A DNA stretch of 63,993 nucleotides, counting the filler, from Jimgerdemannia flammicorona (lineage: Eukaryota), in the NCBI GenBank assembly GCA_003990765.1. It is 2 parts of 2 records of this genome, joined end to end, with 100 filler letters (N's around TTAATTAATTAA, not from the genome) between each part and the next. Parts side by side here need not be neighbours in the genome. Positions count along the whole stretch, not along the records: positions 1 to 31,987 come from RBNJ01000368.1; 1 more part is not named here. One strand, given 5' to 3'. The translations under genes and the position numbers were made by a program. Below the pieces are notes generated by a model. It was not told where the DNA came from, did not search any database, and was given only the letters and a program-made list of their open reading frames with translations. Positions 8,936-26,977 of the stretch are shown here, one piece after another. Each line of letters begins with the position of its first letter. The stretch's first letter is position 1.

Positions 8936-9466
8936 ATGGGCAATATATTTTCGCGTCGACCTGCCCCAAAATCTTTGATCCACGAACCTCCCGAACGCGA
9001 GTCATCTCTCAGTAGTCCTATGATGGTGGCGTACGGTGTGTTCATAGTGCGCTTCATCCAAATAATCCACGACGACGTCCTTACGAAGAACCGAAAACGC
9101 TGGGGCAGCAATGTGGTGCTTGACTTGCGATTCCCGAACTCAGAAGCTGGGAAACTGGTGGCGGCAACAGCAAGAAACCCCGCAGACATCAAGAGTCATA
9201 AGGAGCTGTTAAAAAAATTCAAATCCGTGGAGCGCAGCGCCTGCGACCGCCTAAACTGGGCAACCTTTTGGGACTTTGTCGAAGAGCGATTCAACCAGGT
9301 GGAAGAGTTCGAAAGATTCAGCCTGGAGCTTGTGACAGAAGTGAACAGGGGTAGGCTCACTGTAGATCATATTATTGCAAAGGCAAATCCATCAGTCTAT
9401 TGGCCTTCGAAAGACCCCGAAATGCGATTGCTTCGCTTTCAGCTCCAATTTCACGACATCCAATAG
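8936..9466 (+). CDS. Orphan family paralog P1, 176 aa, predicted N-myristoylated (MGNIFSRR)
   Basis: Intronless ORF with TATATAA at ~8898 and aaaATGG start context. Clearly homologous to five other loci in the window. Confidence 0.85.
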   Translation: MGNIFSRRPAPKSLIHEPPERESSLSSPMMVAYGVFIVRFIQIIHDDVLTKNRKRWGSNVVLDLRFPNSEAGKLVAATARNPADIKSHKELLKKFKSVERSACDRLNWATFWDFVEERFNQVEEFERFSLELVTEVNRGRLTVDHIIAKANPSVYWPSKDPEMRLLRFQLQFHDIQ

Positions 9467-9593
9467 ACTTTGGTAGACTCTACTTATGCTTATATCCATA
9501 TTGATTGTTTGATATTATATCTTACAATCAATATATTTAGATCCTCTATGTCTATGAGTCAATTTTTTTATGGCTATACGTTCTTTTCTTGAA

Positions 9594-10668
9594 CCCTTTA
9601 TGATCTGAGTGCCAATATTTTGTATCTTAAACTTTTCTATTATGTACATCCTGATATACAGCCTATTTCTAGATTTAATTTGTTGAATTGTGTGAGATCA
9701 ATATTAAAAAAAACCACAGTTTGTATATAATATGGACATATATATTTGCAAAACTCTACATCATATACATTATGTCCAAAGCCAGCTACTCACAAAGCCT
9801 TGACATTAGGCGAGTAGTCCGGATCGACCCGAATAGAAAAGATGGCATGTGATCGTCTTGGCAAATCGGCTATTTAGCACTTCGTGGACTGTCCGTTTGG
9901 AATTTTACCATGGTTACTTTGATGTACGGTGGTCGGGTAGTTTAATTCCGGGAGGTCTTGGACAAAGGTTATTGAACATATTTTGCATATTTGCAACATA
10001 CGTGAAAGATGACCTCACCGAATGACGTCTTGGAAAACGAGAATACTAATAAAAGTTCAATAGATTTCTGATCCGAAACAATACAGTTTTTTTTTGATTT
10101 CCGACCCTCGGTTTATCTGCAGTTTGTCATTGTTCTGCGATTAACATTCGGTTTCCATGTTTTCGGGATTTCAAAATGTGGAATTTCTGTGGTGAATTTT
10201 CGAGTTACTCCAGCACCCCCAATACCGAATGAGGAAACATTTCATTGCCTCGATACTGTGCTAGGGTACCTATTGCTGAAGCCCCGCTTAACCAAATCAA
10301 TACGCATAAGCCGTGTTTTGCCAAAAGTCGGACTTTATTAGCACCGCTTCGCAAAGAAGCCCCGCCTTGCAAGTAACCGAGCCCCACTTCACCAAGATCT
10401 CATGCTTCGTTAGGTGAATGCACTTTTCCTCGAACGAGACCAGGACGAAACCAGGACGAGACCAGGACATCCCAACCAGTTCCGAGCACTACTCGACCGA
10501 CGTTAAGGCCCCATGGGAGTATTACAAATTTTTATGTGTATACATGTCTATACTATATACAAAATGATGTTTTTATATATTTTGAAACCTCGAGATAGAC
10601 CAAATATCAGAATGCACTTAATAGAAAAATTTATGATACAACATATTGGCACTCAGACTGTAAAAGGG
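9594..10668. mobile_element. Non-autonomous piggyBac-like element (MITE) with ~170-bp imperfect TIRs
   Basis: Ends are CCCTTTA...TAAAAGGG, flanked by TGAA (9590-9593) and TTAA (10669-10672). 9594-~9760 is the inverted copy of ~10525-10668. Confidence 0.7.
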
Positions 10669-23084: not shown

Positions 23085-24930
23085 AAGCTATGGTGAGACC
23101 AAACGTATCTCTTATTAGATGCTATAGACGCGGGGGGGAATTGTGTACATATTACTAGGGTAGAGCAAGAGAAATCATTCCAAAGCACACGAAATGAGGA
23201 CTACGCCGGCACAGGTGTAAAAGGCGGTGCCCATTGTACGATAACCGATGTCGATTTTTGCATCCTTCCCATTTGAAATGGCTAGTCAATCGAATTGCGA
23301 GTATGAAGGGGTATCAGTTTTTGTCATTTTCGATGTAGTTTGGGAATGATACGCCGTCGCTTTCCAGACTCTCGTAGATATTTTTGATATTCATGCCATT
23401 CGCCTCGATGGCGCGATTCTCTCTGCGACGGAATGGGAAAGGGGTCAAATTCCACTTCTACTTACGCAATAAAAAATAAGAAATTTAAAAAAAAAAAGAA
23501 AATCCGCGACTCACTGATAATCGGAAGGAATCCTGGCATATGCGAAATTTAATTTCATTTGTCATCGATTCGACGAGTGAGTATATTGACCATCCATCAA
23601 ATGTGATAGATGCGGCCTCGCGTCCGCCGTAGGTTTCGAACGTACAATTCGCGTTGCTCTGCGATCCAGCAAATGTCAACTAATCACAATGGACCCAGTC
23701 AGAAATTAACATTGAGCACATAGCGAAACGCACCAAACACAATCATAAATTGTTCAAAAATATGGAAAGGAGGCCAACCTATGATTTATAGAGCTGTTCC
23801 ATAGGTCCAGATTATCTGTCCTTGAGCTAGGCTGTAAGGTTCCTAGGCCGCTTGCTAGCACCACATAGGTGCTGGAAGGTAGTTTAAAAGTGCGTGCCAT
23901 TATCTCCATGAACGAGTAAAAAGAGGCCTTGATCCCTTTGGTTTGCGCGGCGTGATGACCCCACCACGCCGACAATGAGGGTGTCGGTTTCTCCTGTCAC
24001 CAATCTGAAATATAATACCAATGTCTTATAGTGTATATTGGTGAAAAAGAATCGTCAGGGAGGAAGGTGGCGAGTTCGCCGACGTCTTTGCAAAGGTATT
24101 GATAATTTCACCGCTGACATCCTGAACAAAAGGAATGAGATGATGTACCATAGAAAATGTTCCGGTCCTCACTCCGCTGACAGTAGCCTTCTCTAAGTGA
24201 CGTTGTATATTCTGGAAAAGCCTGCAAAAGTTCAACAAGGGATAGAATGTTTGACTTCCGGGTCGGCAAGGTGCCATTCTCTAACCATGGAGCATCCCTT
24301 TGCTGGCTCCGCGCCTCCGTTCATGCACACCGGCTCTCTCTATTACTACTCCCCGCGACCCTCACCCCGCAGCCATCAGCGCTACGACCATCCTTGCTTT
24401 ACCATGGACCCACTTTCTAAACCGTGCAAACAAAACCTTGGGGAGGATAACCAAGAAAAAAATGATTTTACCTTGCGGTTGTTGCAAGTCAGTTAACTGC
24501 TTCTCCATTTTGTGAATACGAAATACGACACCTTCTATAGGCACTTGCTGCCCTAAACAAGTTACAAACATAAAATAGAGTTTGGGTTAACAGTGTACTG
24601 AAGGCTAGTTTTCCAAGATTGTCAATAACCATGGCAACGGCTTAGAACTCAGGAACCCTCTATGACTGTCAGTGGAACATTCTATCCTTCGCTCCCAACA
24701 CCAAGGGCCAATATCTGGGTATCCCCATTGAAAGTCGTCCATACTTACCAATTGACCATGGCAGCCAGTTTTCGCTATTGTCACGGAGCTTGCGCAAGTC
24801 CTTTACGAATTATACCCTATCAAAGGAGCAGGAACAGACTAGGTTCTCCTCGGTGGTAGGAATGGCGGCTGTTGGAAGTACTGCGGAAAGCGGTGTCCAG
24901 TGTAAGTGTTTGGGATCAATTTCGCTCCAT
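23085..24930 (-). pseudogene. Decayed spliced partner gene, copy B, divergent from P6
   Basis: Colinear with copy A. The 5' exon-like segment (PTAAIPTTEENLVCS..FVKDLRKLRDNSENWLPWSI) ends at a GTAAGT donor. Confidence 0.6.
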
Positions 24931-26446
24931 GGCAACCGTCCTTGTTTCAAAAGCCACTCACGGATTTACCATTGTGGGTTGTTTGTGTTGTCCTGACGTC
25001 GGAGCTCTGAAACAGGGCGTTTCACTGGAATGCGCTCACCGTCCAACCGCATTAAAACTATGGAGTGAGCGTGTCGAACCCTTGAACAAAAGGAAAAGAA
25101 AAAGAAAAGGTGAAAAAACAAAATTGCTCCTTCGCAGGTTTAGGAGTTACGGTTCGGGCCAGACTCAAACGATGGCACAGTGGTTGCACAACGCGACGGA
25201 GATGATAGTATGTATTCCCGTTTGTAATGAAGTCATGTAAATATGGTGCTATGTTACCCGGGGCCGCCCGGCGCAAACCTCATGGGCATGAAAATGTGAC
25301 AAAGGATACAAGAGAAATATTTACAAAATTACGAGACGGCGTTCGCGTGATACGCGATCTATGTCCGTTGGCCTTAGTGGCTTCGTGGTTCGTTTTTGCC
25401 CTTTCCAACCTGAGGATCCTCGTGTTTTAATATTCACATGACTAACGCATGTCAATTTTCCTGTTCGTTCCTTTCCCGGCGGTTTTTCTGGGACAGTGCA
25501 CACTCGCATGAGCATTCACCATACAAGGGAATGAACCCTGCATATTGAGCACAATCCATTCTCTGGCAACCATTTGGAAATCACGGGTGCATGCTAACAG
25601 TACGACGAGAACCACTAGCATGAACTTATAGAAAGTGCGTATCCGACTTGAAATGCATATCCGACTCTAGACTGGGTCACGATTGTGTCAAACTGGACAA
25701 GCAAAAACCAGTAAGTTGGAACAGCGATCCACACTGTTTACATTTATGCGGGGTCCCCTACTCGTGATGCTCTTTACCCCGTAAAAGATAAAAGCCAAAT
25801 TTACCCTACAAACACGAACTCGTATCCCGTATCGGTCTGACAATCTGTCAAACTCACTGAGATGGCGTGCAGCCACATCGTCACCATTTCATAACTGTGG
25901 CGCCTGTCTGTTTACTTGCTGACGGTTGAGGCCTTCCATTTCCCAAAGTTACTTGCCGGATCGGATCGGATACAAGGTACGACCAATTGTGTTCTGATCC
26001 ATGTGGCGTGCGGTCTAGGTCCTCGGGCACCAACCGAATTGGCAGCTGAGAATTGTCTATTAATATATTTTTTTATTTTATTTTTATTTTTATTTTTTGG
26101 CGGGGTAGAGTGATAGAGGATCCTATCTATTATCTCGAATACATTGAAGTCACGACCACCAATATTCCAACGCCCGCTCCCGCCTTACTCCGACTGTCAG
26201 GGATTGACGTGACCAACGCTATAAAAAACGTATAAGACGGATACCCTGATGCGGTTCTTCGAGTGTTAGTGGCGTGGCCCCAATTTTGGAAAGGGTCCCC
26301 ATAGCGGTTTAAAGAGGAGGTTAAATCTATAAAACAACATACTGAGCCATCCAATATAACATCTATTTAAACTCTCTGGCCAGAAACAACTTTATTCTAC
26401 ATTTTATACAAGTTATATATTTTCCTGGTCTATCAGTCAATTCAAC

Positions 26447-26977
26447 ATGTGCAGTATATTCTCTCATTATCGTGCCTCAAAACGTCGGTTCCGCGCACTT
26501 CCTGAAGACAAGATATCCCGCCTTAGCCCTATGACGGATACATACGGTGTGCCCATAGCGCGCTTCATCCAAACCATCCACGACCACGTCCTAACTAGGG
26601 GCCAAAACCGCTGGAGCAGCTTCGTGCTCGAATTACAATTCCCAAACTCGGAGCCGGCGACGCTAGTGGCGGCCTTGGCGGAGGTCCCCACGGACAGTGA
26701 GAATCGAGAGGATATGTTGAAAAGGCTCAAATCCGCGGAGCGCAAATCCTACGTCAACCGGGACTGGATAATCTTCTGGGACTTTCTCGATGAGCGCTTT
26801 ACCCAGGTCAAGGAAGATTTCGAAAGATTCAAGTCGGAGCTTGTGACAAAGGTGAATAGGGGCCATCTCAGTGTGGACCTCGTGCTTACAACGGCGAATC
26901 CCTCGGTGGACCAGCCTTCGAAGGACACCAAAATGCGCTTGCTTCGCTTTCACCTTCAATTTCACAACCTTGGATAG
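26447..26977 (+). CDS. Orphan family paralog P6, 176 aa (MCSIFS; Gly2 lost)
   Basis: Full-length intact ORF homologous to P1-P5, with aacATG start context. Confidence 0.8.
   Translation: MCSIFSHYRASKRRFRALPEDKISRLSPMTDTYGVPIARFIQTIHDHVLTRGQNRWSSFVLELQFPNSEPATLVAALAEVPTDSENREDMLKRLKSAERKSYVNRDWIIFWDFLDERFTQVKEDFERFKSELVTKVNRGHLSVDLVLTTANPSVDQPSKDTKMRLLRFHLQFHNLG

Follow-up and report, generated by a model that had tools for sequence, protein, structure and literature searches.

We analysed a stretch of 63,993 nucleotides from the genome of the fungus Jimgerdemannia flammicorona (assembly GCA_003990765.1; positions 1 to 31,987 come from RBNJ01000368.1), hereafter the window. At 8.9-27 kb it holds five intact intronless open reading frames (ORFs) of 161-176 amino acids (aa), which we call P1, P2, P4, P5 and P6, and a decayed copy, P3. 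We consider it fairly probable that these are real genes of an orphan family of the Endogonales, spread by tandem DNA duplication and birth-and-death turnover, whose products would be anchored to a membrane by an N-terminal myristoyl group and a basic patch.

Family copies and their reading frames

ORFs were listed from ATG to stop under the standard code. A tblastn search of the whole window with the five intact proteins as queries gave six family loci and no more:

P1, 8936-9466, plus strand: intact ORF of 176 aa, N-terminus MGNIFSRR
P2, 11296-11811, minus strand: intact ORF of 171 aa, counted from the conserved MGNTPSRRR start
P3, 14223-14844, plus strand: pseudogene of the P1/P4 type, split over three frames
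P4, 16887-17417, plus strand: intact ORF of 176 aa, N-terminus MGNIISRR
P5, 20682-21167, plus strand: intact ORF of 161 aa with in-frame deletions, N-terminus MGNISSSRR
P6, 26447-26977, plus strand: open ORF of 176 aa, N-terminus MCS (Gly2 lost)

An earlier note on this DNA, made from the sequence alone, had described six paralogues, five of them intact and P3 dead, and the ORF listing and the tblastn search both agree with it exactly on the intact copies and where they lie. The core motif that it gave is reproduced by the alignment consensus, and four copies do start with MGN-x-x-S as it had said, P6 (MCS) being the exception.

The five intact proteins align end to end over 177 columns, 56 of which are invariant. 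Identity to P1 ranges from 54 to 76% across the other intact proteins, with P4 the nearest (76% aa identity). The stop codon occupies a common alignment position in P1, P2, P4, P6 and the P3 relic, and that of P5 falls three codons earlier. Because the stop position is shared across copies, the alignment gives no sign of further exons. An additional in-frame ATG is found upstream of P2, at 11898. It lies 5' of the TATA-like box of P2, and the aligned position in P5 reads ATA; the MGN codon is therefore probably the start of P2, and the ATG at 11898 probably not.

In the nucleotide alignment P3 has no ATG, 2-bp and 18-bp deletions in the region coding for FIQIIHD, and an in-frame TAA, and by these defects it is a dead pseudogene. 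It also carries a 29-bp unit repeated 6.0 times at 14527-14700 (99% match), the product of a recent tandem expansion that took in part of the conserved segment coding for RFxQVEEFERF.

Selection on the reading frames, and TATA-like boxes upstream

Nei-Gojobori (NG86) estimates of the ratio of nonsynonymous to synonymous substitution (dN/dS) lay between 0.33 and 0.75 in 10 of 10 pairs, at dS values of 0.28-0.77. Under the GY+F3X4 codon model the ratio (omega) was 0.57, with a log likelihood (lnL) of -2006.93 compared with -2015.41 when omega was fixed at 1, and a value of 1 was rejected (2dlnL = 16.96, 1 degree of freedom, p ~4e-5). Every gap within the coding sequences was a multiple of three in all 10 pairwise alignments. 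The cluster also holds a pair of duplicated non-coding blocks:

18060-19364, unstranded: copy 1, downstream of P4, pairing with 23321-24647
23321-24647, unstranded: copy 2, between P5 and P6

The two blocks are 84% identical, have stops in every frame and differ by 27 gap events, 4 of them multiples of three and 23 not; the pair is not age-matched to any gene pair and serves as a local neutral indel spectrum only. The GC content of the family ORFs is 0.50-0.53, and that of the intergenic DNA of the cluster is 0.434. At third codon positions (GC3) the ORFs reach 0.57-0.65, similar to host genes of the window (0.53-0.61 in the JmjC and dynamin ORFs described below).

A TATAWR motif was found 33-72 bp upstream of the ATG in all five intact copies:

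P1, 8898-8903, plus strand: TATATA, 38 bp upstream of the ATG
P2, 11864-11869, minus strand: TATAAG, 58 bp upstream of the ATG
P4, 16836-16841, plus strand: TATAAA, 51 bp upstream of the ATG
P5, 20610-20617, plus strand: TATATAAA, 72 bp upstream of the ATG, aligned with TATTTAAA in P6
P6, 26414-26419, plus strand: TATATA, 33 bp upstream of the ATG

With a background chance of 0.128 for TATAWR per 75-bp window of the cluster region, the binomial probability of this result is 3.4e-5, a figure that overstates independence because the promoters of P2, P5 and P6 are homologous. The upstream regions of P1 and P4 can no longer be aligned with each other or with those of the other copies. The start context CAA(C/A)ATGGG is conserved.

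Since omega is below 1, the indels are exclusively in frame, GC3 is host-like and both the TATA-like boxes and the start context are present, the family ORFs appear to be real genes whose frames have been kept open by selection. The earlier note had proposed a dN/dS check, here run with the outcome that omega is 0.57 and the value of 1 is rejected; its view that the ORFs stay open through in-frame indels while the duplicated flanks decay agrees with both the dN/dS values and the gap counts. The TATA box that it placed 35-75 bp upstream of most copies is found at 33-72 bp in all five.

Duplication history of the cluster

A codon tree grouped the copies as (P1,P4) and ((P2,P5),P6). The 3' flank of P3 is similar to the 3' flanks of P1 and P4, which places this pseudogene, as far as its flank can tell, with that pair. 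Between P2 and P5, and between P5 and P6, similarity continues for 100-170 bp ahead of the ATG, and between P2 and P6 for ~240 bp beyond the stop; these are the younger pairs, and in the older ones it stops between a few bases and ~30 bp from the ORF. Because the similarity of the younger pairs runs into the promoter and the 3' flank, the pattern fits segmental duplication at the DNA level, after which the flanks decayed neutrally, and fits neither retroposition nor an element with defined ends.

At columns invariant in the other four proteins P6 has 18 private substitutions, including G2C, F36P (first helix) and W157Q, compared with 7-11 in the other copies, and the pairs that include P6 show the highest dN/dS. 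This copy is probably under relaxed constraint. Birth-and-death turnover of the family is supported because one copy, P3, is dead and another, P6, is apparently relaxed, and the earlier proposal of such an evolution gains from the 18 private changes of P6 and its loss of Gly2.

Predicted N-terminal membrane anchor

Glycine directly follows the initiator methionine in four of the five intact copies, and P6 has cysteine at this position. The four N-termini concerned (GNIFSRR, GNTPSRRR, GNIISRR and GNISSSRR) all read MGN-x-x-S and then R-R. The consensus of N-myristoyltransferase (NMT), as quoted in a review (PMC5492501), takes the forms G1-N2-x-x-x-x-R7-R8 and G1-x-x-x-S/T5, and the four MGN N-termini fit both. 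Residues 1-20 of all five copies contain 3-5 K/R, 1-2 D/E and 2-6 S/T, so that a basic cluster with net positive charge appears next to the predicted acylation site in every copy. An NMT-type N-terminus and an Arg-rich patch behind MGN-x-x-S had both been read from the DNA previously; the first is borne out by the match of G-N-x-x-S/T and R-R to the consensus as far as it is given in PMC5492501, and the second by the 3-5 K/R in residues 1-20.

The proteins have a mass of ~19-21 kDa and an isoelectric point of 9.3-10.1, and are laid out as an N-terminal patch, a Pro/Glu linker and a conserved domain of ~145 aa. By hydropathy, no transmembrane helix was seen (maximum Kyte-Doolittle mean of 1.52 in 19-residue windows), nor was a signal peptide: residues 1-20 are of polar and basic character, and hydropathy peaks in a 19-residue window that begins no earlier than residue 26. 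An N-terminus of this kind speaks against a secreted effector of the classical type.

Going by what is established for NMT substrates and for anchors that combine a myristoyl group with basic residues, we would expect the initiator methionine to be removed and Gly2 to be N-myristoylated by NMT during translation. Together with the neighbouring Arg/Lys patch and its interspersed serines, the myristate would then keep the protein at the cytosolic side of an acidic membrane; a two-signal membrane-binding mechanism is described for MARCKS in the part of PMC5492501 at hand. Binding might be reversible through phosphorylation of the interspersed serines, as in Src- and MARCKS-type anchors, and the Pro/Glu linker would connect the anchor to the conserved alpha/beta domain of ~145 aa. 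Each gene would be a single exon with its own TATA-type promoter, encoding a basic protein. N-myristoylation and membrane anchoring of the family are predictions only, made from the protein sequences.

The same N-terminus could instead act as a targeting peptide for mitochondria or another organelle, or as a basic signal of the nuclear type, in genes that are just as real and in which the Gly2 motif is incidental. The first 16 residues are indeed rich in R, S and A and free of D/E (the acid-poor stretch being the first 15-18 residues), and P6 remains open without Gly2. However, G2, N3 and S6 are kept in four of the five copies, and among the first 27 residues only M1, S6, P19 and S27 are invariant. 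The prolines at positions 5, 9-11 or 17-19 are also a poor fit to the amphipathic helix of a presequence. We therefore regard a targeting signal as unlikely, and retain the myristoyl-plus-basic anchor as the preferred reading of this N-terminus.

Searches for relatives

The collections searched consist of predicted proteins and the contig sets named below; the fungal proteins in them are mostly annotated models, and unannotated copies in other Endogonales genomes would be invisible to them. Within this scope no relative of the family was found. A Pfam search with the five proteins at E <= 10 returned sub-threshold noise only, and a word-indexed search of 5.8 billion protein clusters, with the alignment of the family as query, gave no match. 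The best hit of a sequence search of the PDB had an E value of 0.74. In the ESM Atlas, P4 had no usable match and the core of P5 scored at best 0.76, below the stated noise level of the tool. Pattern and tblastn searches yielded 444 pattern matches among metagenome contigs and 77 among viral contigs, none of them a relative.

An exhaustive profile search of 1.84 billion representatives gave two matches at E <= 0.001. The first (P0001) is a low-complexity acidic repeat protein of 1220 aa and was set aside. The second (P0002), a 141-aa ORF from JGI/IMG, aligns over just 43 columns, those around helix 1 (hhalign probability of 89%). The sequences related to P0002 in turn (P0123-P0126) are short ORFs, nearly identical to one another and drawn from several sources. 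Because these end just past the matched stretch, without the other motifs of the family, P0002 was treated as a chance match. The sole locus found in prokaryotic genomes (L001) was likewise judged to be chance, the matched stretch lying inside a 462-aa ORF with a zinc-metalloprotease-like HExxH motif.

The family had been called unrecognised and lineage-specific. Both descriptions hold for the collections covered here: the profile searches gave no credible match, whether to a housekeeping protein, a transposon protein or any other, and there was no relative among the predicted proteins and contig sets. A literature search on Jimgerdemannia flammicorona, on orphan genes of the Endogonales and on fungal N-myristoylated tandem families yielded no paper about a family of this kind; gene models or expression for this region might be listed in the Endogonaceae genome paper (Chang et al. 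2019) or its supplements.

Genomic setting and mobile elements

Outside the cluster the window contains ordinary host genes and mobile elements:

1-5612, minus strand: LINE-like element, in which 964-2130 encodes a reverse transcriptase (RT) domain and an upstream ORF of 662 aa (3624-5612) has no Pfam match
33559-35956, plus strand: dynamin-family gene, with Dynamin_N, Dynamin_M and GED in separate ORFs
57571-63993, minus strand: long terminal repeat (LTR) retroelement cut by the window end, with 164-bp terminal repeats (57571-57734 and 63830-63993) that are 95.7% identical

The arrangement of the dynamin-family gene suggests that it has introns. A JmjC/Cupin_8 ORF (43965-45317, minus strand) encodes a product that, across 97% of its length, shares 100% identity with a protein of Jimgerdemannia flammicorona; identity to a protein from Endogone sp. 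is 64%, and to those of other Mucoromycota 35-45%. By this match the window belongs to that species or a very close relative, an ectomycorrhizal fungus of the Endogonales, and the family is fungal. The JmjC and dynamin-family genes are ordinary host genes. The pol ORF of the LTR retroelement (60210-62432, minus strand) encodes aspartyl protease, dUTPase and RT domains. Over the LINE-like element the plus strand is strongly C-rich (GC skew of about -0.45 over 6 kb), and the coding strand is thus unusually G-rich.

A pair of AT-rich repeats (7067-8149 and 30809-31862) is inverted, ~1.1 kb long and 72% identical, and lies in 2-kb windows of 26-34% GC. The whole paralogue cluster lies between these repeats, which may have arisen as separate insertions of an old element or may be the two arms of one larger composite structure. 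A 38-bp tandem repeat (28117-28271; 4.1 copies, 89% match) is found a short way downstream of the cluster, inside a 151-aa ORF (27730-28185) that has no Pfam match. None of the 22 other ORFs of at least 85 aa at 5.7-30 kb has a Pfam match at E <= 0.01, and Rfam gave nothing in the window. The compartment is as rich in transposable elements (TEs) as had been claimed, with the LINE-like element, the LTR element and the AT-rich repeats all present.

In such a setting the ORFs might belong to an unclassified repeat or mobile element, or be a captured or domesticated element gene, in which case the purifying selection would reflect the spread of the element. The cluster sits between the LINE-like element and the AT-rich repeats, an LTR retroelement is present in the window, and the family has no cellular relatives in the protein collections searched. 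Retroviral matrix proteins, too, combine an N-terminal myristoyl group with a basic patch. However, similarity between the copies covers the ORF and at most ~240 bp, and no shared termini, LTRs or terminal inverted repeats surround them. No Pfam match to a transposase, RT, integrase or gag was found in the family ORFs or in the 22 other ORFs at 5.7-30 kb; beyond the cluster, tblastn picked up no copy in the remaining 44 kb of the window, retroelements included, and the GC3 of the family is that of host genes. A mobile-element origin is accordingly quite improbable in our judgement, and we keep to the reading of the copies as host genes duplicated at the DNA level.

Evidence against a functional family and fold prediction

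Several results weigh against our preferred reading of an expressed, membrane-anchored family of real genes. An omega of 0.57 is only moderate constraint, and dN/dS is near 0.7-0.75 for P5-P6 and P2-P6. One copy, P6, lacks Gly2. At 1844, the ESM recognition score falls short of what 91 of 100 proteins of known families attain, and AlphaFold2 (AF2) gave a predicted local distance difference test score (pLDDT) of 38.8 on the full-length alignment and 49.3 on the core alignment, with a core predicted template modelling score of 0.41. An exact look-up in a collection of 15 billion proteins was negative for all five ORFs and for the long form of P2. Because that same collection does hold the JmjC product, public gene callers either did not model the five ORFs or filtered them out. 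No RNA run containing the stretch was listed, and one soil-metagenome run (X1) contains 0.12 of the sampled words; expression of the genes, like the anchor, is a prediction only.

The two low-confidence AF2 models are broadly alike in the order of their elements, with a helix first, one or two strands next, then three or four helices and finally two strands (H-E-E-H-H-H-E-E). A Foldseek search with a low-confidence model gave no match in the PDB at E <= 0.001, the best query-normalised TM score being 0.34, and a wide VIA-align search, also from a low-confidence model, found no chain with Z >= 5 among 48,161 (best Z of 4.5). The models are too poor for any fold to be claimed or excluded, the four-helix bundle included. 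This is in line with the earlier statement that a fold could not be assigned, given the pLDDT values and the lack of a Foldseek match at that threshold.

Discussion

The earlier note had gone on to suggest a role in non-self recognition or cell death, in meiotic drive or as a symbiosis effector. Such a system of genetic conflict or interaction (allorecognition and cell death, meiotic drive, or a symbiosis effector leaving the cell by an acylation-dependent unconventional route) would suit the tandem birth-and-death turnover, the TE-rich region and the lineage restriction. Orphan genes also diversify with TE proliferation in ectomycorrhizal lineages, according to the part of PMC7550596 available to us. 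However, none of the five proteins has a cell-death, HET or NLR-associated Pfam match at E <= 10, HeLo and gasdermin included; the cluster has no partner gene, and hydropathy shows no signal peptide. Omega is below 1 overall (five sequences are too few for site-level tests), and the birth-and-death pattern is equally typical of ordinary orphan families. The suggested role gained no support, and we think it very doubtful.

A bolder form of the idea has a new, Endogonales-specific fold tethered to the membrane by myristate and acting in conflict or partner interaction, for example in allorecognition or cell death, in killing spores, or through unconventional, acylation-dependent export towards the host plant. 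Its paralogues would diversify by tandem birth-and-death, with P6 as a lipid-free, neofunctionalised or decoy copy. We consider this quite unlikely as well. Least probable of all is that the copies are transcriptionally silent relics of a once-functional family on which selection has ended: gene models are lacking, and one copy is dead (P3), one degrading (P6) and one truncated (P5), but five ORFs of 161-176 codons have stayed open at dS of 0.28-0.77 with in-frame indels only, and TATA-like boxes and start context are kept even where the upstream regions of P1 and P4 no longer align.

As an anchored family, the proteins can be compared with Src SH4, MARCKS and retroviral matrix proteins, with which they share an N-terminal M-G-x-x-x-S followed by an Arg/Lys cluster with serines, a likeness that predicts two-signal binding to acidic membranes. 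They differ in that Pfam and PDB searches reveal no sequence relationship, the ~145-aa domain of the family is unrelated, and its lipidation is predicted. They also resemble the orphan genes (MiSSP-type) of ectomycorrhizal fungi, as treated in the available part of PMC7550596, in being small, lineage-restricted, without known domains and placed in the TE-rich genome of a mycorrhizal fungus. MiSSPs, however, are secreted through a signal peptide, whereas hydropathy shows none in the family proteins. The likeness to HeLo/HELL or MLKL-like domains goes no further than the broad notion of a small, helical protein that is directed to membranes and encoded in variable genome regions. The family has no Pfam match to these domains at E <= 10, its predicted structure is mixed alpha/beta and not a four-helix bundle (in low-confidence models), and no NLR or prion-motif partner is adjacent to the cluster.

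Ectomycorrhizal lineages are described, in the part of PMC7550596 available to us, as having lineage-specific orphan genes that diversify alongside TE proliferation. Because such lineages combine TE proliferation with many orphan genes, the family is unsurprising in kind as far as this source goes.

What is known of the gene content of the Endogonales, a mycorrhizal lineage that diverged early and is uncultured, comes almost wholly from automated annotation. In this lineage, the cluster shows compact, selected single-exon genes within repeat-rich DNA that are missing from the public protein sets searched. They form a genuine but functionally opaque orphan family, and one that gives a simple testable prediction, namely Gly2-dependent myristoylation and membrane binding. 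It may turn out to be one more orphan family of a kind common in fungal genomes; should the domain prove to have a new fold, or to be a factor in conflict or symbiosis, the family would offer a useful point of entry.

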